Positions 2,022-17,018 of a DNA stretch of 18,213 bases are shown here, piece after piece. Both the position numbers and the translations under genes were made by a program. Origin of the DNA: Centruroides vittatus (taxonomy: Eukaryota); contig NW_027122668.1 of NCBI RefSeq assembly GCF_030686945.1, positions 252,099 through 270,311 of the forward strand, read 5' to 3'. The notes below the pieces were generated by a model. It was not told where the DNA came from, ran no database searches, and saw only the letters and a program-made list of their open reading frames with translations. Numbering within the stretch: the stretch's first letter is position 1; each line of letters opens with the position of its first letter.

Positions 2022-2390
2022 TTGACAAAAAACAAACGTGACTGCTCGACAACAAAGGCATATATTTCAATTGGCAATAAAAAAAACCAATGTTCTGTAA
2101 GACAAATAACAGAACATTTGCCAGGTTGTGTTTCAAAATCAACTGTTGATTGCACTTTGTTGAAATCTGGAGAAGCTAAATTCAAAAGAGTGAAGAGAAG
2201 ACCTTCTCTTAAATCATACCGCAAGGAGGCTAGGCTCACCTGGGCCAAAAATCATATGATATGGGACAAGGAATGGACCAAAGTTATTTTCAGTGGGCAA
2301 AAGAAGTTTAATTTATACAAACCAGATGATTTTAAATATGTTTCTTATGCATGGAGGTGGTGCTATGAGAAAAAACAAGAGCAAAATTAG
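2022..2390 (+). pseudogene. Tc1/mariner (Tc1-like) transposase fragment covering the middle of the protein, from the helix-turn-helix region to the start of the DDE domain. It is truncated and decayed.
   Basis: The translation ...VSKSTVDCTLLKSGEAKFKRVKRRPSLKSYRKEARLTWAKNHMIWDKEWTKVIFSGQKKFNLYKPDDFKYVSYAWRW... matches the conserved Tc1 pattern ISxSTV...KKPLLS.K.K.ARL.FAK.H..W....W..V.FSDE.KFNL.G.DG...VWR. No catalytic DDE portion follows, and there are stops just upstream and downstream. Confidence 0.7.
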
Positions 2391-2789: not shown

Positions 2790-3650
2790 AAAGTAACGAT
2801 AGCGAAGATTAAGATTATTACGTTATAGTCACAAAAGAAAAAGAGTAATTTCATCAACGAACTAAGTATTTCTAAAGAAAGGTCAAATTTGAAAATCGAA
2901 TGTTCCAATATTGTTTGATTTTCACGACGTGTTCTGATTATATCCTTTGATTTTCATCGAATGTTCTAAAGAAGAAAGGTCGAGAAAAACCGAACTAATC
3001 TGTTTAAATTTGAAAATCGAATGTGTTCTAAAATATTACTTTTTTTCTTTTTTCTTTTTTTCCAGAGCCCGTAAATCTTGCACGTCGCTTTCTCTTGTTC
3101 TCCATTGTTACTTCACACTATCATCGTTACTTAACACTTTGGTACTTAAATTTGGTACCCTAACTGTGTACCAAATTTCAACTTTCAACTCCTAACCGTT
3201 TTAGCAAAAATTAAGATTATTATGTTACAGTCAACCTTACCCATTTTCACAGAATGCAAGAATTGGGTCTCCCCTTTTCAGATTAATTACATAATTTTTA
3301 GATGGGTCTAAAAATATATTCAATTTCCTGCAAAAATGAAAAAACCGCATCTGCGTCTTGCACATCGCTTTCTCTTAACAATTCCATTGTTACATAACAC
3401 TTCCATTGTTGACATTTCCATTGTTACTTGACACTTCCATTGTTACTTGACACTTCCATTGTTACTTGACACTTCCATTGTTGCCATTGTTACTTGACAC
3501 TTCCATTGTTGATGGAAGTGTTAAGCCTTAATCCTGTCCCTCTCCCCCGTGGAGAGGAATTTCGAAAAATCCCTTCTTAGTGTGCGTTCTTGTGACATAC
3601 CCTAACTGTGTACCAAATTTCAACTTTCAACTCCTAACCTTTTGGGCTCT
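2790..3650. repeat. Composite tandem repeat block of about three degenerate units. Shared unit starts (gcRaaRattaagattattaYgttaYagtc) are at ~2797 and ~3200. Shared unit ends (cttgcacRtcgctttctctt ... ccctaactgtgtaccaaatttcaactttcaactcctaacc) are at 3075-3196 and 3365-3641. A short sub-repeat ttgaaaatcgaatgttc occurs three times within 2888-3027.
   Basis: Copies were aligned by eye. The 40-bp block ccctaactgtgtaccaaatttcaactttcaactcctaacc is identical at 3149-3188 and 3600-3639. Confidence 0.6.
3384..3511. repeat. Minisatellite of about seven contiguous 19-bp units (ccattgttacttgacactt and variants). It is an expansion inside the second copy of the 2790-3650 repeat and ends in a perfect 11-bp-stem hairpin aacacttccat-tgttg-atggaagtgtt.
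   Basis: Units were read directly. The first copy of the parent repeat (3100-3135) has only about two units, so this is a copy-specific expansion. There are no spacers, so it is not CRISPR-like. Confidence 0.8.
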
Positions 3651-3659
3651 ATGCTGCTG

Positions 3660-3676
3660 ATTATTATTATTATTAT
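3660..3676. repeat. (TTA)n microsatellite on the plus strand, equivalent to a (TAA)n 3' tail on the minus strand of the adjacent LINE fragment.
   Basis: attattattattattat was read directly. Confidence 0.8.
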
Positions 3677-3763
3677 GTTGGGTTAAGTGAGATATACTCG
3701 GTTAACACCGGTGGCTGTGTACTATGCCGGACCAAAGTCAAGGCATAGTAACCAAAACAGAAA

Positions 3764-4578
3764 TTAAAGAAGTATATCAGTGTGTGTGTCTGTATTCAGG
3801 AATTTTCTCACAATATGACATGTATTCAATATAGTGGCCTTCTGTAGTGTGATGTATGTGTTTCTATTCAATTGTAATGTGCCCAGGCTTTTGTGTAGTG
3901 TGTGTGGTATGACACCTGTAGAGGAGAGAACAACAGGTACAATGAGCACCCTATCCATCCTCCACAGATGCCTTATTTCGTGGGCGAGTTCTGTGTACTT
4001 GCTAATTTTTTCAGTGCATGCGTTTTGTATATTGTGAGTGTTTGGAATGGATATGTCTATAATGTATGTGATTTTATTGTGTTTGTCAATGAGTGTGATG
4101 TCTGGTCTGTTGTGGTAAATTGTTTTATCTGTGATTATGGCTCTGTCGTAGTACATTTTGTGCGTGTTGTTTTCCAATACTGTCTGTGGAATGTATTTGT
4201 AGTATGGTTCGTGGATGTCTACTAATTTGTGTTTCTTTGCAAGCTCTTGGTGTATTATATTTGCTATTTGATTATGTCTGTGTAAATAATCTGTCTGTGC
4301 CAAGAGCTTGCAACCAGAGGTGATGTGTTGTATAGTTTCTGGCATGATGTGACATTTTCTGCATGTGTCATTTGTGAGTGTTGTATCTTTGAGTATGTGT
4401 TTTCTGTAGTTTTTAGTATTTATGACCTGATCCTGTATGGCGATCATGAATCCTTCCGTCTCCCCAAAGAGGCATCCCTGAGCTAACCAGCTGTTTGACG
4501 CAGTTTTGTCAACAAAATCCTGGGCCAGATCATAAGGATGCCTGCCATGGAGTGCCTTTCGAGCCCACGATTGCTTAA
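3764..4578 (-). pseudogene. 5'-truncated non-LTR retrotransposon (LINE) ORF2 C-terminal fragment. It comprises the 227-aa ORF plus about 44 further in-frame codons upstream, an ~87-bp 3' UTR and a (TAA)n tail.
   Basis: The translation contains the C-x2-C...ET..H....C zinc-knuckle-like motif (DTCRKCHIMPETIQHITSGCKLL...HRHNQIANIIHQEL), followed by ...HNRPDITLIDKHNKITYIIDISIPNTHNIQNACTEKISKYTELAHEIRHLWRMDRVLIVPVVLSSTGVIPHTLHKSLGTLQL.... Both are conserved in C-terminal regions of many invertebrate non-LTR ORF2 proteins. The reading frame stays open upstream to ~4578 (...WARKALHGRHPYDLAQDFVDKTASNSWLAQGCLFGETEGF-MIAIQ) and then runs into a poly-N tract translated from the (TTA)n microsatellite. 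Confidence 0.6.
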
Positions 4579-4580
4579 TG

Positions 4581-4622
4581 TTATTATTATTATTATTAAC
4601 TCGTCTTGATTATATATATATA
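4581..4622. repeat. (TTA)6 microsatellite at 4581-4598, immediately followed by a (TA)7 microsatellite at 4609-4622.
   Basis: Read directly. Confidence 0.8.
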
Positions 4623-4751
4623 GATTGGTTAATGTTAGTATAAAATAGCACTCTAACTGCCTACCTTTAGAAAAAAATTATTTTATAGTTTAATTTTATT
4701 TAAAAAATAACTGACTATTTTTACAAATTTAAAAAAAAATACTTAGAAAAG

Positions 4752-5184
4752 ACTAAAATGTTTTTTTTTTGCCATGTCCAATCACCAGAAACAGCAGTTC
4801 TCCATTGCAGAGACAACCTTTTAGGTTAATGTTACCCTTAGTGCCAAGATGGCGACTCATCTCTGATTCCAGCAAGGAAACAGTGGGATGCACGTTCTAA
4901 CCTAACCTAGCCTATTCTAATAAATTACCATAATTATCAGCAACCAAATTATTAGAATAGGTTAGGTTAGGTTAGAACGTGCATCCCACTGTTTCCTTGC
5001 TGGAATCAGAGACGAGTCGCCATCTTGGCATCAAGGGTAACATTAACTTTAAAAATATAATTTCACTTAAAAATGGCTGACATATTCACACAAAAAATTA
5101 CATAGAAGAAACTAAAATATCTCTGCAATGTAAGACTGTTGTTCCTGGTGATTGGATATGCTGAAAAAATGAAGACATTTTAGT
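4752..5184. repeat. Larger foldback with imperfect inverted arms at 4752-4813 and 5120-5184 (core ...actaaaatg...atccaatcaccagRaacaRcagtYYtMcattgcagaga). Its loop contains MITE copy 1 (4826-5046).
   Basis: The reverse complement of 5120-5184 aligns to 4752-4813 with about 85% identity by eye. Confidence 0.55.
4826..5046. mobile_element. MITE family A, copy 1. It is a 221-bp near-perfect hairpin with ~100-bp arms and a ~25-bp loop, and TTAA at both ends (4826-4829 and 5043-5046). Each arm carries three TTAGG/CCTAA units.
   Basis: Left arm gttaatgttacccttagtgccaagatggcgactcatctctgattccagcaaggaaacagtgggatgcacgttctaacctaacctag.... The right arm is its reverse complement. Two further copies lie at 6031-6251 and 13628-13848. 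Confidence 0.8.
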
Positions 5185-6030
5185 ATTTTCTACATATTTT
5201 TAAAAATTATTTTATATTAAATACTAATAGATAGGCAAGTAGATACTGTAGAGTGGGTTATATGAAAGTTTTATTTTCATTCTTGCAGTTTTCTGTCGGG
5301 TATGTGCCATTGCGGGTCATCCACCTGAAATAATGGTGCATTTTGAAGATTATGAATCAAGAGGTTCATGTTATATTTCAAGCAGGGTTAGACTTAATGA
5401 AAATTTTACTTGTTTATTGGCATTACAATATTTTAAAATGTCAAACTCTACTTCAAAAAAATAAAACTTTTGTCTTTTATAGTAATTTACATTATAAAAG
5501 AAATTATTTTTTTAATAAAATCTCTTAACAGATGGCATTCTATGTATTTTAACTTTGAGCTCCTACCTTGAAATTATCTTAGTGTTTTTAGTATTATTAT
5601 TTAAGTTTTACATAATAGTATAACTGACAATTATCAAACTTCCTTCCTGGTTCCATTAACTTCCAGTTCGAGAGCTTGGGAAGGTTGTGCAAGAACCTTG
5701 CCACCGTCTTTCCTAAAGTTTTGATCTCTATCACACTATTGACACCTATTACGGTGAAATGTCGGTAAAACGAAATTGAGGGGACCATCAAAATATTTTC
5801 CTTATATTGAAACACAATCAAAAATATAAGGATAAAAGAAATTTATTGATGATAAAAAAAATTGCTTACATTTTGAAGTAAGAAGGTTTTAAACATGCAA
5901 TTTGTCTATTAGTATTTATATGGAACAAAATTTTATATTGTTAGAACGTAAGTTATATTAAATTAGAATAAAAATTATTCTGTAATAAAAAATTATCAAA
6001 AAATACGAGCGAATGACTAAAATTAACAGG

Positions 6031-6251
6031 TTAATGTAACCCTTGGTGCCAAGATGGCGGCCCGTCTCTGATTCCAGCAAGGAAACAGTGAGACGCACGT
6101 TCTAACCTAACCTAGTCTATTCTAATAATTTGGTTGCTAATAATTATGGTAATTTATTAGAATAGGCTAGGTTAGGTTAGAACGTGCGTCCCACTGTTTC
6201 CTTGCTAGAATCAGAGACAAGCAGCCATCTTGGCACCAAGGGTTACATTAA
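6031..6251. mobile_element. MITE family A, copy 2. It has the same 221-bp hairpin with TTAA at 6031-6034 and 6248-6251.
   Basis: About 90% identical to copy 1 by eye. The arms contain ctaacctaacctag and ctaggttaggttag. Confidence 0.8.
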
Positions 6252-6599
6252 CCAAATAACAATATAGTAGTACCGATTAGTTGAAATCCTGCCTCTTCCA
6301 TTGTTGTTTCTGCTTGAAGCCATTATTTTCTGGTAAAAGAAGTCTAATTTTTGTGTGTTGTTTCTTTAATCAAGTTTTTTCGATGAAATCTAGTACTGTG
6401 ACAGCATCCGGTAGGCCATCGGGCACATCTTTTTGTTTAATTCCTTTTTGCATGTTATCTAATATTTTATTAGTCTCTTTCAAAGAAAATTGCTTTTGTT
6501 TGTTTTATTTTTCTCCATTTTTTCTCATAAACTTAAAAAGAAATAAACTGTAGAGTAATAACATTACAACGAAACCATAACTTAGGATTAAAATTAATA

Positions 6600-7021: not shown

Positions 7022-7630
7022 TATTGTGAGACTGTTTAACATAATATTCATCATTTACTAATAATGAATGATTTATGCATTTATAAATTTCATCGTAATG
7101 AAACTATTCGTTTGTAACGGGAAGAATTTGTATTAAGTTAAACTGAAATACTTGTTATAATGATATTTGTTAAACAGAAACATTTTTGCATTGAGCTTAA
7201 TAGGAAATTGGTCCTTTGCTTTTTAAATTTCTCTCAGGCTCTGTCTGAGAGGATTCACGCACAGTTCTATGCATTTTTTGCAGATCTAAATGAAAGCCCA
7301 TTCTCATTTGTAACAAAATCAAGTAACAGTTTTAATATCCAAGAAGATGAATGGGGAAGCCCAGTAGTAGTAGAGTTTAAGTGTAATTTTTCAATATGAC
7401 ATCTAAAAAGCAGAGAACTGTGTATTAAGGAGTTGGTTGATCGATATCTGGGAGGATTCTTAAATATTTTTCAGAATATATTTTTAATTTTAGGTATTAG
7501 TAGAATTTTACCAAACAGATGTAATGTGTACATGATACCTTAAACTCTTGTCAGGAACAGCCTTATGCTAGCAAAATATAAGTATTTTTAGTATTTTGTT
7601 GTAAAGAGGTAAACACTAATTTTAAAATAC

Positions 7631-7736
7631 TGTTGATCTAGTAATAGTCTCTTTAATCCGAAAAATATATTGACGGTAGACTGTCTCACAGTCTACATAT
7701 ATTTCTCGGATTAAAGAGACTATTACTAGATCAACA
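7631..7736. repeat. 106-bp hairpin with 40-bp arms (one mismatch) around a 26-bp loop that itself contains a smaller palindrome (gtagactgt-ctc-acagtctac).
   Basis: Left arm tgttgatctagtaatagtctctttaatccgaaaaatatat. Right arm atatatttctcggattaaagagactattactagatcaaca. Confidence 0.75.
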
Positions 7737-7853
7737 TATAATCCAGCTACCATAGGAAATTTAATTAAATACTATTGTTTAGGATATTGTTTCACAAAAA
7801 TTTAAATTAAAAGCTGACAATAGCACTTGCACGACTTTCCCAGAAAATTATTG

Positions 7854-7906
7854 AACTTCCTTCCTGGTCCTCTTAACCTCCTGTTAAGAGGACCAGGAAG
7901 GAAGTT
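7854..7906. repeat. 53-bp palindrome aacttccttcctggtcctcttaac-ctcc-tgttaagaggaccaggaaggaagtt. Its left half resembles 5636-5666 (aacttccttcctggttccattaacttcc).
   Basis: Read directly. A probable related copy lies at 5636. Confidence 0.65.
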
Positions 7907-9587
7907 TAATCATTTTCAAATATACAATAGAAAATTTTTAAATAATAATGGAAAATATTGATTATTTGATATATTGATACAACATTTTCCAATATCAGTA
8001 ATATCGAACATCAATAACAATATTAAATATTAAATTGCATACTTCTAGCCCTTCTGTTTACAAATATTAATTATTTTGTTACAATTATCCAATATACTAA
8101 TTTGTATAACAAACCAGTCAAAAAAATGTAAACTGATGATGGCATAATGCCGAAATGCATATTTATTAAGAGGCCGTAAATCTGAATAAGCCTTTTATTG
8201 TAAAAATAGTCGAGCATTGCATTTTAATGTTAAATAAAAACTAAAATTTGAAAATCTGTCTCCGCATATGATAAGCCTTAAAAAAACATTATAGGCCTAA
8301 AAGGATAATTGTAACAAAATAATTCATAATAATAATAAATAATTAAAGTATTTTCTTCCAATTAGTTTTTATATATTGCTGCGGCTCTGTTTTCCCACTG
8401 TGTCATTCATGGTGCAGGGGTTAGCGTCTTTACCTATCAGACGGAAGGTTTCCGGTTTTAACCTCTTTGATGTGGTTCTTTTTTTTTGTGTGTACGTTCT
8501 CCTGGTCTGAGAACACGTGTTAATTCGTTATCATTTACATATTTCAACCATGTCCGCACAGTATATAATCGCGAGCTCTCAGGTTGAGGGCAGTTATTAT
8601 CTAGCACTGCAAGCTGCAGTGATTGTACTGTGGTGTTCTATAAAAGTGAGGCAGTACGGTCCGCGAATGAAACGTACAGAAAGGACTCTGCAACGACTAC
8701 AATAATAGACAATGTCCCTTTATTCCACTTAGAACAAATAAGGTTTTTTTTTGATAAGGAATCCCAACTGACTTTTTTATGACTTACAAATTGAGGTGTT
8801 TCACACAGGGGACTCTGTCCCTAAACAAAGCACAATGGTGTGTTATTTTTCTAGCACGTAACAATCAGTTCCTCGTAATTGCGTGACTAACCTGACTTAA
8901 ATCTAGCTTAAATCTAACTTAATATTAAGGAAAAATAAGAAAGATAGGATAATGGGAAGGTAGAAGAAATGAAGGAATGATTCACCCGGAGTTTTCTCTT
9001 TCTTCGGCGGATACGTACTTTGTGTATGATCTGGGTTCGACGATAGTAGCTTTCTTCACTATCCTTTCTTCTCTCAATTATCGGGGTTCTCTAATATGCC
9101 GGTCTCTATATTTCGGTTCCTCACTAGACTATCGCCAACTTCTTTCCTCTCTCGGAAATCACGATTGAGCCTCTCTCTTTTCGTCCTTCTCTCTTCGTGT
9201 CTAGTCAAAAAGTGACTCCTCTCTTAGCCACTTTTTCCCCAGGCCACACTACCTGCTATTGTCCCTACCGATTCTCGGAACGGCTAATCCAGCCCCATGG
9301 CGATAACGGTCATCTTGGAAAGTTTAATAAGAAAGAATAGACAAAGGAAAAAAGAGGAAATTGCAAAAATAATATAGGATTATAACTATATACAATAAAA
9401 TATATATATACAATATGGCCGACGGTCACAGTACGTTCTCTGAGTGAGTAAACATCCCTTTGTGTTCCTAAAGACTGGTTGCCGTTTGTCTCTGCGACAA
9501 TATTTATCATGATAAATTCTGATTTAACTAGTTTTACATTAGTTTTTACATCTCTTTTAAATTAATTCATAGTCCTTTCTTATGTTT

Positions 9588-9657
9588 CCGGCATGGAAGT
9601 CAATGTAAAAACAAAAATACCTGATGCTGGTGTTTTTATATAGACTTCCATGCTGGC
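9588..9657. repeat. 70-bp imperfect hairpin with ~26-bp arms (ccggcatggaagtcaatgtaaaaaca / tgtttttatatagacttccatgctggc).
   Basis: Read directly. There are three mismatches. Confidence 0.6.
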
Positions 9658-9725
9658 AACATATGCAAGATCAGAGTGAATTAATTTAGAGAATAGTTCC
9701 AGTTTTAGTAATAATTTGATACTTA

Positions 9726-10770
9726 CAGTAGCGCATCGATTATCCAACCCCCGATTAACCGTCACATCGGTTAACCGACCACGTTCTAGTCGGCAAATTC
9801 AAATGTCTGCTAGTGATGTGGCGCTACAATATTTGGCTATGTCTTGGCTACTTTAATATTATTTTTGTTAAATTTTTGCACGTTTTAGCTGGAAACACTG
9901 GCTCGACCACAAAAGGGAGGCCAGTATTTAAACCAGGCTTAATTTTCTATTTTTATCTTTATTTTTGTTTCTATTTCTTCTTTGAAACCATGTTTTCTTG
10001 ATTGTTGGACTATGAACCCAAAGTTGAGTTTTAATTAAACACTTGGCTTTATTTCCATCTTTATTTAGTTGATACGTGCCATTTGCACGTTTCGGGCATA
10101 GAGCCCCTCATCAGTCAACTAAACAATACAACAATTAAAATACACTACACTTAGTTACACAATTAAAATACAATTACACTAAGTATTTTACCAAACAAAA
10201 TCAACACAAGGTATGGTTCTTACCATTATCATATTCGATCTGCCATGCATACAAGGTTTAAACTCAGTCGACACATGTATCTTATTTTTTCTATAAACGG
10301 AGTAATCCCTTTTACACACAATATTTATATCTGGTATAAAAACAATGTATAAGAATATAAGCTGTATATAATAAGTTATTTTTAAAAAATGTAAAAATTC
10401 TTTAAAAGCACTGACAGGAAGTAGATTAACCAATTACCTGTTGTACTGTACATAATCTTTTGCTTATTTTACAATATCCAGTTACCAATAATTCCTTTAT
10501 TTTTATATTTATTTTGTTCAAAATAAAGAAATAATTTTTAACGATACAATAGCGATGATTATTATTTTTAAAAAGAATTTTGTTAGGCTTAACATCGATG
10601 AAAATTCAACGCGAAGTAGGTTAATAGCGATATACTTATATACTAATTGTATGGGATATACTAATATACTATACTAATAATATATTTTTTCATATTTTTT
10701 GGTTATCCGTTTTTTCAGTTATCCGACCAACCCCAGTCCCCAGTTGAGTCGGATAATCGATGCTCTACTG
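9726..10770. mobile_element. Non-autonomous Tc1/mariner-like DNA transposon, family B, element 1 (1045 bp). Its TIR is CAGTAGCGCATCGATTATCC / GGATAATCGATGCTCTACTG, flanked by TA (9724-9725 and 10771-10772). It appears to be an internal-deletion derivative of element 2.
   Basis: The 20-bp TIRs (one mismatch) and both TA flanks were read directly. The 3' ~230 bp (10540-10770) align to 12820-13026 of element 2, sharing ttaggcttaaMatcgaYgaaaattcaacRcgaag, ggttatccg and cagttatccgaMcaaccccagtYcccaRttga. The 5' stretch caaaataaagaaataatttttaacgatacaat at 10513-10545 matches 11797-11828. Confidence 0.7.
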
Positions 10771-10829
10771 TATTTCGGAATTAAGCTTTTTTCCCTTCTT
10801 ACAACATCTATGTTTTTTTACTCCACCAA

Positions 10830-11540
10830 AGACAAAAAGTATAATGATAAATGGAAAAGATACACTGCATCAATTTGTGATGATATGGTGACAATGAGTA
10901 ATTCAGAAAGAGAAATGAATCATATGCTTAGTAAACTTCACAAGAACATACGTCAATGGGGTTTAAAGATAAACATTAAGAAAAAAGAGGTGACGGTAGT
11001 AGAAAAGAACACTGAAAGGACAAAAGCTAATGTCAGGATTGACAGAAAGATAAAATTTCTTACTTGTTCTGCTCCTATTGAGGGAATGAAGTCAGGGAAG
11101 ACAAGATATATAAAGGATAGGACTCATGAAACAAGCTTTCCAAAACAAAAGAAATCCACTAATGTCAAAATACCTGAGTATGGAAGCAAAGAATTTGTTT
11201 TTGTATTTACTAAGACATTCCTCTGTTGTATAGAAGTGAATGCTGGACACTAGGAAAGCAAGAGATGATGTGTCTGGAGGGAGCAGAAATGTGGATATGA
11301 AGGAGAGTAAACAAAATAAGCTGGACTGAACAGAAAACAAATGAAACAATTCTGACGGAAGTGACAGAACAAAGGAAGTTAATACAGGAAATAGGGAAAA
11401 GAAAAATTAAATTTATAGGTCATATTGTTAGGCACAATAATTTCCTGAAAACGATCCTTGAAGGAAGAGTTCTCAGAAAGAAAGGAAGAAGACCAAAGAA
11501 AAAGTATCTTGAAGAAGTCAATACTTCTGTGGAATTCTGA
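10830..11540 (+). pseudogene. Decayed non-LTR retrotransposon ORF2 fragment (reverse-transcriptase C-terminal part plus conserved tail). It is frameshifted and has internal stops.
   Basis: The ORF at 10699-11253 (its first ~45 codons lie in the family B 3' TIR and are not coding) contains the RT motif region ...SICDDMVTMSNSEREMNHMLSKLHKNIRQWGLKINIKKKEVTVV.... This is a degenerate form of the conserved YADD and GLKIN..KTKVM reverse-transcriptase motifs. Further downstream, in other frames, lies ...WTLGKQEMMCLEGAEMW...KISWTEQKTNETILTEVTEQRKLIQEIGKRKIKFIGHIVRHNNFLKTILEGRVLRKKGRRPKKKYLEEV. This matches a C-terminal tail, WTL...E..L.AFEMW..RR.L.ISW...TNE.VL......R.L...I..RK..F.GH..R........EG...GK..RGRP, that I recall from many invertebrate LINE ORF2 proteins. 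Confidence 0.6.
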
Positions 11541-11605
11541 AGTTATTATGAATTAAAAGGACAGAGAGCATTGGTTGCAGTGACAAGGCAAAACCTTTAG
11601 TAATA

Positions 11606-13026
11606 CAGTAGAGCGTCATTTATCCGAAAGCCGGTCAACCGAAAGCTTTCCAGTCGGACTGTGTCGTGCTGAATCAAACGTTTTTGATACTAGATTAACT
11701 TCTAAAGTATAATTTTTTTTGTTTTTATATTTTTCAATATATTTTATTTTGTTTGTACAAAATAAATATATTGAAAAATAACAAAATATACAAAATAAAG
11801 AAATAATTTTTTAACGATACAATTTGCGTTTTTCATGAACTATAGAGGGCGCTGCATTTTTTACAAAATGGCTGCTTCATCTGGGTCGTTTGTAACTAGT
11901 AATGTAAAATTAATCATATATTACTGTCCGATATAATGATATATGCTGCTTGTAGCTGTTTATCGAGAAATTTTATAGTAGGAGAACAATTATTGCTAGC
12001 GGGACACTGTCATTATGTGGTATCGAAACAAGTGAGAGAGATCATTCTATATATATTTGTGCCCTTTGTGTTAAAAACATCAGCTTTGACATTGTCATAT
12101 CAGGGCTGGATTTACAAGTAAAAAGCTACGTAAATTGTTGCTTAGGGCTTCGACTTTCAAGGGGCCTCAAACATTTGTACAAAAAAAAATTAAAGTCGAA
12201 TTTTGTAATAAACATTTTTTACAAACCAACAATATATACTTTACTTTTTATTTTGTGTAGTATTTCATTAATTTTTTCTAAGAATTAACATAAAGATTTT
12301 TAATGGAATGAGTATAAAAATTTAATTAAATTCAGTTATAAAACAGAAGACTAGTGAAACCTCACATCTTTTTCTTCCAATAACGATATTGAATCAGAAA
12401 GATAGTCTGATTTAATTCTTTTATTTTTATGATTGACTTCTAAAATTGTGAAGGGTTGGTAAGGGGACTTACAGAGTTCAGCTTAGGGCTTCGAAATGCT
12501 TAAATCTCCTATCTTTGTTTAAAGTTGGACAATCAGGAAACCGGCAATTCTTAACAGTTTAATCCACTCTTTCAGAATTCGGAGAAGCTCATAAATATAA
12601 CTGACCGATTTCCGAAGAATCATCTGTTTTTCGTGTGGGAATAGACGAAAACTTATATTAGGCTCCCGTAAGTCTTTGAAATTGTAATTTGGAACGCAAC
12701 AGAAAGCTTTGCTTTTTCTATTGCTATTCATCTTTACTGCTGATAATAGACAAGGATTAAGCAAACGACCCAGATAGAATAGTTTTGTTTTTAAACACCA
12801 GAGGGCGAGCATTCGGTGAAAAATGCGAATAGCCTCAATTATTATTATAAAAATTTTCGTTAGGCTTAAAATCGACGAAAATTCAACACGAAGCGACACA
12901 CAACGGAGAAAATTTTCAACATTGGATAGGTTAATATATTTTTTCGTACATAATTGGTTATCCGAAAAAATCAGTTATCCGAACAACCCCAGTTCCCAAT
13001 TGATTCGGATAAATGACGCTCTACTG
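11606..13026. mobile_element. Non-autonomous Tc1/mariner-like DNA transposon, family B, element 2 (1421 bp). It has perfect 23-bp TIRs CAGTAGAGCGTCATTTATCCGAA, flanked by TA (11604-11605 and 13027-13028). TTATCCGA subterminal motifs occur, twice direct plus once inverted at the 3' end and once in the 5' TIR.
   Basis: The TIR was read on both ends, and the reverse complement of the right end equals the left end exactly. A TA flank plus a CAGT terminus is the established Tc1/mariner signature. The element has no transposase ORF. The 126-aa ORF at 12519-12899 (minus strand) is low-complexity and overlaps the conserved 3' repeat region. Confidence 0.75.
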
Positions 13027-13268
13027 TAGATAGAATCTCTCACCAAAAATGAAAATTATTACAGGAAATATGGTATTACTGGGAGACTCAGACTTTATGG
13101 CACTTTCCTTCATTTTAAACATTTTATGTAAAAAATATGATTACAAAATATGCATGAAAATTGTTAAATTGTTTGACAATCTTTCTTGCATAACCATTTG
13201 TAATGTTAGAAAGATGATCGACACACTAGCGTTGATAATCTTTCTATTATTACAATACAAATTATTAA

Positions 13269-13308: not shown

Positions 13309-13627
13309 TCTAATGATTAATTTAACAAGCTATAAAGTTTTTCTAGTTCTACATACTGTACTTAAAAATAACAAAATAGATGTGTTGGTTATTGATAAGA
13401 ATAATAAGCATAACTAGACACCTATAACCAGCAAAAGGTATACTTTAAAGGAAATGAATGTTTTCTTTAAAATGTATGTCATAAATGTGCACCAACTTTT
13501 TTGAATACACATTTGATTTTATTTTTGTTTCATTTAATCTGATGATGTCAGTTTAAAAGTATCAATTTTTACTGGTTATAGTTGTGTTAGTATACAGCAG
13601 TATACAAGTATTGATAAGAATTTGTGG

Positions 13628-13848
13628 TTAATGTTTACCTATGGTTCCAAGATAACAGCTCATCTGATTCCAGCAAGGAAACAGTGGGGACGCACGTTCT
13701 AACCTAACCTAACCTATTTTAATAATTTTGTTGGTAATAATTATGGTAATTTAATAGAATAGGTTAGGTTAGGTTAGAGCGTGCGTCCCCACTGTTTCCT
13801 TGCTGGAATCAGACGAGCTGCCATCTTGGAACCATAGGTAACATTAAC
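13628..13848. mobile_element. MITE family A, copy 3. It has the same 221-bp hairpin with TTAA at 13628-13631 and 13845-13848 and (CCTAA)3/(TTAGG)3 in the arms. Its outer arm ends are more divergent (gttccaagataacagc versus gtgccaagatggcg in copies 1 and 2).
   Basis: Read directly and aligned to copies 1 and 2. Confidence 0.8.
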
Positions 13849-14314
13849 CGAATTTATATTATTTTTGTGTGATAAATATTCAATTACAGTGGAGTCTGCC
13901 TGTTTTAGTCATTTACGACATTTGCTTACACTGATAACAATAAATAGTGTACAGTACATAAATGAGACTGATTACAATTAGTGGAATTTTTATTTTTATT
14001 GACAATAAAAGGACATCTTAAAACAATTATAAAATGTGTAACTTGAAGATTTATTAAATATAATTTTTATTAATTAATAATAATTCATCCAAAAAATATA
14101 TTTTCAATAACAAATGCCAGCAGTTTAAACTACTGCACTGTGAACAAATAATGATTTTAACAATAAAGCAGTAGCTAATGATTGCATGTTTCAACCACAT
14201 GTTGAGACTGATATAGATGGCATTTACTTCAAGAAAAAGAATTTTTTTCTAAGATTTCTATCATGTCTTCTTGAAGCTCATAATAAATTGACATGGATTG
14301 GTGATATTCATTCC

Positions 14315-16791: not shown

Positions 16792-17018
16792 AATAGCGAG
16801 GTTGAGGCCAAAGTTTTAAATGCGAAAATGTGTACGTCAGACGTTCGGCGCCGCTTTCCTGTAAGCCTAGAAGTTTGACAATCGCGTTTGGAATGTCGAG
16901 CATGATTCCACTGACTTTCCAAACGCCATTGCCAAACTTCTAGGCTTACAGGAAAGCAGCGCCGAACGTCCGACGTACACGTTTTCGCGTTTAAAACTTC
17001 GGCCTCAACCTCACTAAT
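16792..17018. repeat. ~225-bp palindrome or foldback that is GC-richer than its surroundings. The arms are ~100 bp (16792-16893 and 16916-17018) around a ~22-bp centre. Most arm mismatches are CpG-to-TpG/CpA transitions.
   Basis: The left arm gaggttgaggccaaagttttaaatgcgaaaatgtgtacgtcagacgttcggcgccgctttcctgtaagcctagaagtttgacaatcgcgtttggaa was compared with the reverse complement of the right arm. The differences are ccAaag/ccGaag, aTgcg/aCgcg, aaTgtg/aaCgtg, tcAgac/tcGgac, agCgagg/agTgagg and gcCgc/gcTgc. Confidence 0.75.

Follow-up and report, generated by a model that had tools for sequence, protein, structure and literature searches.

Two TA-flanked elements in a repeat-rich region

The stretch of DNA analysed here, called the window, is 18,213 bp long and contains two elements, E1 and E2, which end in terminal inverted repeats (TIRs) and lie 835 bp apart in the same orientation (Table 1). 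The inverted arms of E2 (11604-11628 and 13004-13028, 25 nt) consist of the TA and the 23-bp TIR and were 100% complementary, and those of E1 (9724-9748 and 10748-10772, 25 nt) were 92% complementary. A preliminary description of this DNA had reported two elements that point the same way and belong to one family, with perfect 23-bp TIRs in E2, related 20-bp TIRs in E1 and TA flanks throughout. All of this was borne out by the arms, the flanks and the regions common to both elements, with a single mismatch in the TIRs of E1.

Table 1. Features of E1, E2 and the sequence between them (positions in the window).
Feature	Position	Strand	Remarks
E1 left TA flank	9724-9725	.	presumed target-site duplication
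Element E1	9726-10770	+	1045 bp; non-autonomous, pogo/Tigger-like; transposase-sense orientation, from type of each end
E1 5' TIR	9726-9745	+	CAGTAGCGCATCGATTATCC; 20 bp, one mismatch between the two TIRs of E1
E1 5' motif array	9740-9778	+	TTATCCAA 9740-9747, TTAACCGT 9755-9762, TTAACCGA 9771-9778; three direct copies
E1-private internal segment	9803-10518 (approximate)	+	about 716 bp, no E2 counterpart
E1 AT-rich hairpin	arms 10481-10503 / 10520-10542		
E1 copy of shared 33-bp block	10519-10550	+	right arm of AT-rich hairpin
E1 3' region common to E2	10561-10770	+	TTATCCG(T) 10703-10710; TTATCCGA 10719-10726; 3' TIR 10751-10770
E1 right TA flank	10771-10772	.	presumed target-site duplication
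Degenerate LINE reverse-transcriptase tail	10830-11603 (approximate)	+	YxDD region to ORF2 end; frameshifts, stop codons
Predicted empty site in LINE-tail copies			…TTTAGTAA-TA-GATAGAATC…
E2 left TA flank	11604-11605	.	presumed target-site duplication
Element E2	11606-13026	+	1421 bp; non-autonomous, pogo/Tigger-like; perfect TIRs and TA flanks; orientation as E1
E2 5' TIR	11606-11628	+	CAGTAGAGCGTCATTTATCCGAA; 23 bp, perfect
E2 second 5' motif copy	11635-11642	+	TCAACCGA
E2 AT-rich hairpin	arms 11712-11749 / 11759-11796		
E2 copy of shared 33-bp block	11791-11823	+	overlaps right arm of AT-rich hairpin
E2-private segment	11824-12830	.	1007 bp, absent from E1; about 70-bp degenerate inverted repeats at bounds
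E2 3' region common to E1	12838-13026	+	TTATCCGA 12958-12965, 12975-12982; 3' TIR 13004-13026
E2 right TA flank	13027-13028	.	presumed target-site duplication

TA was present at all four element flanks, for which the chance is about 7e-5 given the TA dinucleotide frequency of the window (0.093). It is from these flanks that a TA target-site duplication at E1 and E2 appears likely; no paralog of the flanks of either element was found inside the window. When up to 6 substitutions were allowed, the TIR pattern matched 4 sites in the window, which are the four ends of E1 and E2, while a TIR match at up to 3 mismatches occurred in 0 of 200 shuffled sequences. The octamer TTATCCGA, already pointed out as a recurrent subterminal motif, was found six times, always inside the ends of E1 and E2, compared with 0.37 copies expected by chance, and six copies were reached in 0 of 200 shuffles. 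An Rfam search of the whole window gave no match, and a full-text literature search for the TIR strings returned unrelated primers only.

Both elements are non-coding. No Pfam domain was detected in the six frames of E1 or E2, and tblastn of 120 pogo-type transposases against the 18-kb window gave noise only (best E 0.08) and no transposase remnant, in line with the earlier statement that neither element encodes a transposase. A transposase of at least 300 aa, which would mark an autonomous element, is thus found in neither. E1 and E2 are non-coding and have TIRs and TA flanks, but at 1045 and 1421 bp they exceed the usual length of a MITE two- to threefold and by size would hardly count as MITEs; their common core measures about 360-400 bp.

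The LINE fragment that had been placed between the elements is a degenerate reverse-transcriptase tail. Its match to RVT_1 (E 1.2e-5, 25.6 bits) is under the Pfam cutoff of 29.6, and the frame translations agree with the assignment. A LINE ORF of 227 aa had best matches that were 64-72% identical, the named ones mostly from Lepidoptera. A Tc1-like transposase fragment is also present in the window at 2022-2390 (HTH_Tnp_Tc3_2, E 5e-6); no TIR of the E1/E2 type was associated with it when the window was scanned.

Relation between E1 and E2

The two elements have about 70 bp in common at their 5' ends, with a 5' subterminal match of z = 5.4. Their 3' regions could be aligned over 179 columns with 83.8% identity, and without the TIR this match had a z score of 23 against dinucleotide shuffles. 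The common 3' region had been described as about 230 bp long; it exists but measures 210 bp in E1 and 189 bp in E2. Likewise, the sequence described as a shared 5' block is real (33 bp, 97% match), but in E1 it lies at element positions 794-825 of 1045, 10 bp upstream of the 3' region and far from the 5' end. For positions 110-760 of E1, the z score against either strand of the E2 interior was about 0. AT-rich blocks that a global alignment with cheap gap extension had placed across the interiors were dismissed after the shuffle test.

E1 had been regarded as an internal-deletion derivative of an element such as E2, on the route from a longer element to a MITE. It does lack about 1 kb of E2, namely the 1007-bp segment, but it is not a subset of E2, since about 716 bp of E1 have no counterpart there, and the segment supposed to have been deleted is itself bounded by inverted repeats. 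This derivation was therefore not upheld. The private segment of E1 showed no coding signal and no clear TIR, inverted repeats or target-site duplication of its own.

The bounds of the 1007-bp segment were distinctive. It is enclosed by AAT at 11821-11823 and AAT at 12828-12830, a direct repeat of the kind that the proposed check for microhomology at the breakpoints would look for, and E1 continues across the junction without a gap. Its termini are inverted repeats of each other over 14 nt, 12 of which match, and a collinear perfect 14-nt inverted repeat is located about 56 nt inside each end. Among control segments of the window, 12/14 terminal matches occurred in 0 of 16955 and a collinear exact run of at least 14 in 0 of about 5650. 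A second copy of the segment was not found, and the inner blocks specific to the E1 and E2 lineages had no significant match in any of the retrieved loci. The inverted repeats and the 2-3-bp repeat at its bounds point to DNA inserted in the E2 lineage no less than to a deletion in E1; insertion is the probable reading, and the inserted DNA would probably be a nested TIR element of unassigned family.

The alternative is that the ancestor had the 1007-bp segment and that the E1 lineage lost it between the AAT repeats by slippage or microhomology repair, aided by a hairpin into which the inverted repeats at its flanks can fold, and gained its 716 bp separately. The 3-bp direct repeat at both breakpoints and the gapless course of E1 across the junction agree with such a loss, and inverted repeats with short direct repeats at their flanks are deletion-prone. 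Terminal inverted repeats with a 2-3-bp flanking repeat are, however, the standard signature of a transposon insertion, and the complete relatives found in other genomes, at a short 341-450 bp, lack such a segment, so we consider this loss possible but rather unlikely.

E1 and E2 are best read not as parent and deletion product but as relatives with a common core of about 360-400 bp, made up of the 5' end, the AT-rich hairpin and its 33-bp block, and about 200 bp of 3' region. To this core each element is best read as having private internal DNA, 1007 bp in E2 and about 716 bp of unassigned origin in E1.

Relatives with the same ends and their transposases

A metagenome scan with a degenerate 20-mer of the TIR gave 49 loci, 38 of which were low-GC and eukaryote-like, with the subterminal motifs of the family continuing beyond the TIR. 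The remaining matches (L003, L006, L008, L030, L035-L037, L040, L041, L047 and L049) were high-GC or phage-like and were set aside as chance, as were two matches in a scan of viral contigs, which had no TA flank, did not continue the motif and lay in coding-like phage sequence. TA directly preceded the TIR in 32 of the 38 eukaryote-like loci or, counted by distinct flank, in 11 of 16. Relatives with the same TIR also kept the subterminal TTATCCGA motifs. The expectation that relatives with this TIR would exist elsewhere thus held, both on these 38 contigs and in coding elements of other species.

Complete TA-flanked MITEs of 341-450 bp were recovered among these loci (L025/L028, L024/L042 and L017/L032/L045). 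They resemble E1 and E2 in the TIR, in having a 5'-type and a 3'-type end and in the TA on both sides, and their size is near that of the common core. In contrast to E1 and E2, they have no long internal segments, come from other organisms and carry the TIR CGATTATCC or CAATTATCC rather than the CATTTATCC of E2, a variant seen in no element of any eukaryote-like contig. Many of the JGI samples with these MITEs are, we assume, termite-gut metagenomes.

The same TIR was linked to transposase genes. In L014 it follows a DDE_1 ORF (E 2.6e-31) at a distance of 300 bp from the stop codon; the homologs of this ORF are named 'jerky protein homolog-like' or 'tigger transposable element-derived' and have PF04218, PF03221 and PF03184. 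The Aphis gossypii locus L053 contains an element of 2125 bp that is flanked by TA and whose perfect 24-nt TIRs, CAGTAGAACCTCGATTATCCGAAC, enclose a 507-aa gene model; two Homalodisca vitripennis loci (L052 and L054) have the same 3' end. The transposases of the four coding elements recovered with this TIR were all DDE_1, of the pogo type. The catalytic triad, read from L014 and P0004 (alignment A2) and hence from relatives in other species only, is DD34D.

The 3' ends of E1 and E2 could be aligned with those of the coding elements over 80 nt with a mean column identity of 80% (alignment A1), and blastn extended the match between the window ends and the relatives over 69-85 nt; since the relatives were retrieved with the TIR itself, the independent support is the short subterminal homology of about 50-60 nt together with the end architecture. 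At the 5' ends, the elements and their relatives have a direct-repeat architecture in common, and where the A. gossypii element and the metagenome MITEs have their three TTATCCGAAC-type repeats, the E1 array falls in the same place (alignment A3). The end layout is a 5' TIR with two direct TTATCCGAAC copies, and a 3' TIR with an AATTGGGAC spacer and two inverted GTTCGGATAA copies.

Tigger elements duplicate TA at the target site, have TIRs of 8-33 bp and encode a transposase with CENP-B-type DNA-binding and DDE_1 domains (PMC9219625, PMC7386202), with a catalytic triad in the range DD29-36D (PMC7386202). The TIRs of E2 (23 bp) and E1 (20 bp) and the DD34D of the relatives fall within these ranges, and the ends of E1 and E2 match those of elements whose transposase has DDE_1 and CENP-B_N/HTH_Tnp_Tc5 domains. 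Tigger is a family of the pogo superfamily, within the IS630-Tc1-mariner group. Like E1 and E2, its insect 'jerky protein homolog-like' members such as the 2125-bp A. gossypii element have TA flanks and TIRs of 20-24 bp that start with CAGTAG and contain TTATCCGA; E1 and E2 differ in being non-coding, with internal DNA unrelated to the transposase gene, and the coding relatives belong to other species. The partner would be of the pogo/Tigger type rather than DD34E or DD37D, because the coding elements with these ends carry DDE_1 transposases, and the more specific Tigger-like placement is suggested by NCBI names and the domain set. The label 'Tc1/mariner-like' used at first is appropriate only if the term is taken broadly, as in older usage, so that it covers pogo, and not in the strict sense. 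We consider it very probable that E1 and E2 are non-autonomous copies, diverged from each other, that belong to a single family within the pogo superfamily (Tigger-like, 'jerky-like'), inserted at TA in a repeat-rich region of an arthropod-like genome and each with private internal DNA.

Strict Tc1/mariner elements with a DD34E or DD37D partner, E1 being the product of a single internal deletion in an E2-like element, would account for part of these observations. Tc1 (DD34E) and maT (DD37D) elements also have a TA target site, CAGT termini and short TIRs, the window holds the Tc1-like fragment mentioned above, and E1 lacks a precise stretch of E2, for which the 3-bp AAT could be deletion microhomology. 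On transposase class, however, this account, including the DD34E/DD37D partner proposed initially, is contradicted by the coding elements with the E1/E2-type TIR, which have DDE_1 and not DDE_3. The Tc1-like fragment has no such TIR, and on the deletion it fails to explain both the DNA found in E1 but not in E2 and the inverted-repeat termini of the 'deleted' segment. We judge it very improbable.

There is even less reason to regard E1, the LINE tail and E2 as one composite unit (9726-13026) mobilised through its outer TIRs. Its outer ends do pair a 5'-type with a 3'-type end, correctly oriented to each other and each flanked by TA, but the inner ends are TA-flanked as well, as expected of two separate insertions; no second copy is known, and E1 and E2 are about 16% different in their common part. 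That the likeness of E1 and E2 stems from duplication of a local segment or from inverted repeats arisen by chance, and not from mobile elements, as their proximity and equal orientation might suggest, is hardly credible, as each element has its own TIR pair and TA flanks, no shuffle reproduced the TIR or motif count, and the idea is refuted by the presence of the TIR and subterminal architecture at many unrelated loci in several species beside transposase genes.

Proposed mobilisation in trans and implications for annotation

As non-autonomous pogo/Tigger-type elements, E1 and E2 would move by cut-and-paste only with a transposase supplied in trans, presumably by an autonomous partner in this genome. 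The N-terminal helix-turn-helix domains of that transposase are predicted to bind TTATCCGA(AC), the motif in the inner part of the TIR, as well as the copies of it in the subterminal DNA; the E1 5' motif array would then be a set of putative transposase-binding sites. Two or three direct motif copies would be offered at the 5' end and, at the 3' end, two inverted copies beyond the conserved spacer. A comparable arrangement is known from Emigrant and Lemi1 of Arabidopsis, where a pogo-like transposase binds both the TIR of a MITE and its subterminal repeats (PMC1636448). As in E1 and E2, a non-autonomous element there has the TIR and subterminal motifs of a pogo-like transposon; Lemi, however, is a different pogo family, of plants, and binding was established there by experiment whereas here it is predicted.

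The end layout is kept in non-coding DNA of aphid, leafhopper and metagenome-borne insect hosts and of this genome. One tentative explanation, which we think unlikely, is that the asymmetric multi-site ends are an obligatory transposase-binding platform of one Tigger-like lineage, and that E1 and E2 are MITE-sized cores that became longer as foreign DNA was taken up or struck them, whereas elements usually go from long to short. In that case the elements might still be mobilisable, as the TIRs of E2 are perfect. Horizontal spread could be another cause of the conservation across distant hosts.

E1 and E2 are an ordinary transposon relic of a known transposon type. They matter chiefly for annotation and have no bearing on an open biological question. 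The 3.3-kb region is to be treated as nested repeat DNA and not as host sequence, and the appropriate label for E1 and E2 is non-autonomous, of the pogo/Tigger type (TcMar-Tigger-like), rather than Tc1 or maT. The comparison of E1 with E2 also gives a caution, as a shorter element with the same ends need not be the deletion product of the longer one. The conserved TIR and subterminal motifs provide a probe for the family, both MITEs and autonomous copies, in insect genomes.

Structure of the two elements and the surrounding DNA

The shorter element (E1) and the longer element (E2) are both bounded by terminal inverted repeats (TIRs), and TA was found at all four element flanks, while TA makes up 9.3% of the dinucleotides of the window. 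When the 18.2-kb window was searched with the TIR pattern allowing up to 6 substitutions, four sites were obtained, which were only the E1 and E2 ends, and dinucleotide shuffles gave no TIR match at 3 or fewer mismatches. The motif TTATCCGA was present in six copies in the window, all six within the E1 and E2 ends, compared to 0.37 expected by chance, and none of 200 shuffles gave six. Together with the TIR, flank and shared-block statistics, this motif count indicated that the two TA-flanked TIR elements of the preliminary description are real. Their non-autonomy was also borne out: no Pfam family was matched in the six frames of E2 or the six frames of E1, and 120 pogo-type transposases searched against the whole window by tblastn gave noise only (best E 0.08). 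Rfam gave no match to the window.

Features of the window
Feature	Positions	Strand	Description
E2	11606-13026	+	1421 bp; 25-nt inverted arms, 100% complementary, consisting of TA and the 23-bp TIR CAGTAGAGCGTCATTTATCCGAA
E1	9726-10770	+	1045 bp; 25-nt arms, 92% complementary; 1 mismatch within the 20-bp TIR
Palindromic foldback-type element	4819-5054, 6029-6256, 13626-13853		~230 bp, 3 copies, 81-92% identical to one another
Further self-complementary stretches	16794-17016, 7627-7739, 7843-7917, 9558-9688		225, 117, 75 and 133 nt; 75-89%
Truncated Tc1-like transposase fragment	2022-2390	+	122-aa ORF; sub-threshold HTH_Tnp_Tc3_2 (E 5e-6), then WAKNH…W..V.FS motif
LINE C-terminal ORF	3764-4447	-	intact, 227 aa, CCHC-like motif; homologs at 64-72% identity
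Tandem array	3374-3512		19-nt unit CTTGACACTTCCATTGTTA, ~6-7 copies; short dispersed repeats adjoin at 3101-3202 and 3598-3643

The 835 bp between E1 and E2 carry a degenerate reverse-transcriptase tail, with a YxDD-like ICDD followed by …GHIVRHNNFLKTILEGRV…, that ends at tag-taa just before E2, exactly at E2's TA. The RVT_1 match in this gap (E 1.2e-5) was under Pfam's cutoff; the earlier reading of a LINE fragment was reasonable. E1 and E2, diverged members of one family in the same orientation, thus lie 835 bp apart on either side of a LINE tail. This close spacing may reflect chance, given the many repeats of the region, or else local hopping or a target preference.

The whole window is repeat-rich, and its (TTAGG)n-type repeats, together with the relatives of its repeats, suggest an arthropod host. 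Each copy of the foldback-type element folds into an almost perfect hairpin (in the third copy, 13635-13728 and 13748-13841 form arms with 93% complementarity), and (CCTAA)3 and (TTAGG)3 runs adjoin the loop of the third copy at 13699-13772. The self-complementary stretch at 9558-9688 is located just left of E1. For the Tc1-like fragment, neither a DDE_3 part downstream nor an E1/E2-type TIR nearby was found, which excludes this fragment as their partner. Homologs of the 227-aa ORF corresponded to the C-terminal portions of proteins annotated as 'reverse transcriptase', the named ones mostly from Lepidoptera; this ORF is the tail of a LINE other than the one between E1 and E2.

Relatives in other genomes and the type of the partner transposase

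Scanning metagenome contigs with CAGTAGMGCRTCRWTTATCC yielded 49 loci. Eleven were taken as chance matches, being high-GC or phage-like, without TA and without continuation of the motifs; two viral matches to the TIR pattern were treated likewise. The other 38 had 33-43% GC and looked eukaryotic (LINE reverse-transcriptase ORFs, microsatellites, a transposase), and the sequence beyond the TIR carried on with the E1/E2 subterminal motifs. Identical flanks across several samples indicated that many of the contigs repeat an insertion already present in another, so TA directly before the TIR, seen in 32 of the 38 loci, was counted as 11 of 16 distinct flanks. Complete MITEs of 341-450 bp with the same TIR and asymmetric ends were present at ten loci (L025, L028, L021, L034, L023, L024, L042, L017, L032 and L045), most with TA on both sides. 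Since these metagenome copies share the TIR, further copies, on which the preliminary description had made its reading depend, do exist, albeit in other genomes. Many of the JGI sample identifiers are presumably those of termite-gut metagenomes.

In the metagenome contig L014, a 293-aa ORF runs on the opposite strand, and the TIR was located ~300 bp past its stop codon. This ORF encodes a protein with a DDE_1 domain (PF03184, E 2.6e-31), and its homologs are insect proteins named "jerky protein homolog-like" or "tigger transposable element-derived" by NCBI; full-length homologs contain CENP-B_N, HTH_Tnp_Tc5 and DDE_1. The same TIR was found downstream of the gene in all three homolog loci whose surrounding DNA was taken. 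One of them, from Aphis gossypii (L053, JAGTJE010000449.1), holds a complete 2125-bp element (3666-5790) that starts with TA-CAGTAGAACCTCGATTATCCGAAC and ends with a perfect inverted copy followed by TA. Its transposase has one frameshift. P0018, a 507-aa gene model named 'jerky protein homolog-like', lies in this transposon copy; an intron of the model seems to span the frameshift, and the C-terminal residues that it annotates, …SDNRGSTVL, come from translation of the 3' TIR. At the Homalodisca vitripennis locus L052, the reading frame is uninterrupted and gives a protein of 477 aa (P0004). Thirty-four residues separate the second catalytic aspartate from the third (LLLDNAPSHP…QPMDQG), a DD34D spacing.

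Tigger/pogo elements have a TA target-site duplication, TIRs of 8-33 bp and DDE_1 with DD29-36D spacing (PMC7386202, PMC9219625). The features of the coding relatives fit this description and are inconsistent with DD34E Tc1 or DD37D maT elements; the DD34E/DD37D partner proposed earlier was of the wrong class, as the coding relatives with this TIR are DDE_1, DD34D. Judged by sequence, E1 and E2 belong to the pogo/Tigger-like DNA transposons, as non-autonomous elements of an ordinary kind.

End architecture and candidate binding motifs

At the 3' end, both E1 and E2 could be aligned with the coding elements over 80 nt, with a mean column identity of 80% (alignment A1). The layout is the TIR, AATTGGGAC, ~10 nt variable, GTTCGGATAA, ~8 nt and GTTCGGATAA again, and in blastn the match extended 69-85 nt inward; the link to the coding elements thus goes beyond the search pattern itself. 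The 5' ends differ from the 3' ends in that a TTATCCGAAC-like motif recurs twice more after the TIR, in direct orientation, an arrangement that is also shared (5'-end alignment A3); in E1 the copies are TTATCCAA, TTAACCGT and TTAACCGA. In the coding elements, the gene is preceded by the direct-repeat end and followed by the inverted-copy end, which places the transposase sense of E1 and E2 on the + strand.

These subterminal motifs are kept in non-coding DNA of aphid, leafhopper and metagenome hosts as well as in the window. Such conservation supports the earlier idea that they are candidate transposase-binding sites. A pogo-like transposase was found experimentally to bind the TIR and subterminal repeats of its MITE (PMC1636448).

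Relationship between E1 and E2

The family relationship of E1 and E2 holds. In addition to the TIR, they have in common a 26-nt 5' subterminal stretch (z = 5.4 vs shuffles), a 33-bp block with 97% identity (E1 10519-10550, E2 11791-11823) and the 3' region, where the final 210 bp of E1 and 189 bp of E2 gave 179 aligned columns with 83.8% identity (z = 23 without the TIR). What had been called a 5' block sits in E1 10 bp upstream of this 3' region.

E1 had been described as an internal-deletion derivative of E2, which fails as stated: ~716 bp (~9803-10518) are private to E1, and for positions 110-760 of E1 no resemblance to the interior of E2 was seen in either orientation (z about 0). Conversely, exactly 1007 bp of E2 (11824-12830) are absent from E1, where the junction is read through gap-free. 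The microhomology to be looked for at the deletion breakpoints is present in the form of AAT, repeated directly at 11821-11823 and 12828-12830. The extreme ends of the 1007-bp segment are inverted termini, ATTTGCGTTTTTCA and TGAAAAATGCGAAT, matching at 12 of 14 positions, as did none of 16,955 equal-length control segments from the window. A perfect 14-nt inverted repeat, ATCTGGGTCGTTTG, lies ~56 nt inward of each end, and a collinear exact run of at least 14 occurred in 0 of ~5,650 window controls; the bounding inverted repeats are degenerate, ~70 bp. A nested insertion leaves this kind of trace, terminal inverted repeats flanked by a repeat of 2-3 bp, and the segment is probably a nested TIR element with a 2-3-bp duplication. 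Insertion into the E2 lineage seems more likely than deletion in E1, which keeps some probability since neither the window nor the other loci compared gave another copy of the segment.

Once the private parts are subtracted, the core common to both elements amounts to ~360-400 bp, near the 341-450 bp of the complete relatives elsewhere. With ~16% divergence in the shared part, E1 and E2 are old relatives, not parent and child.
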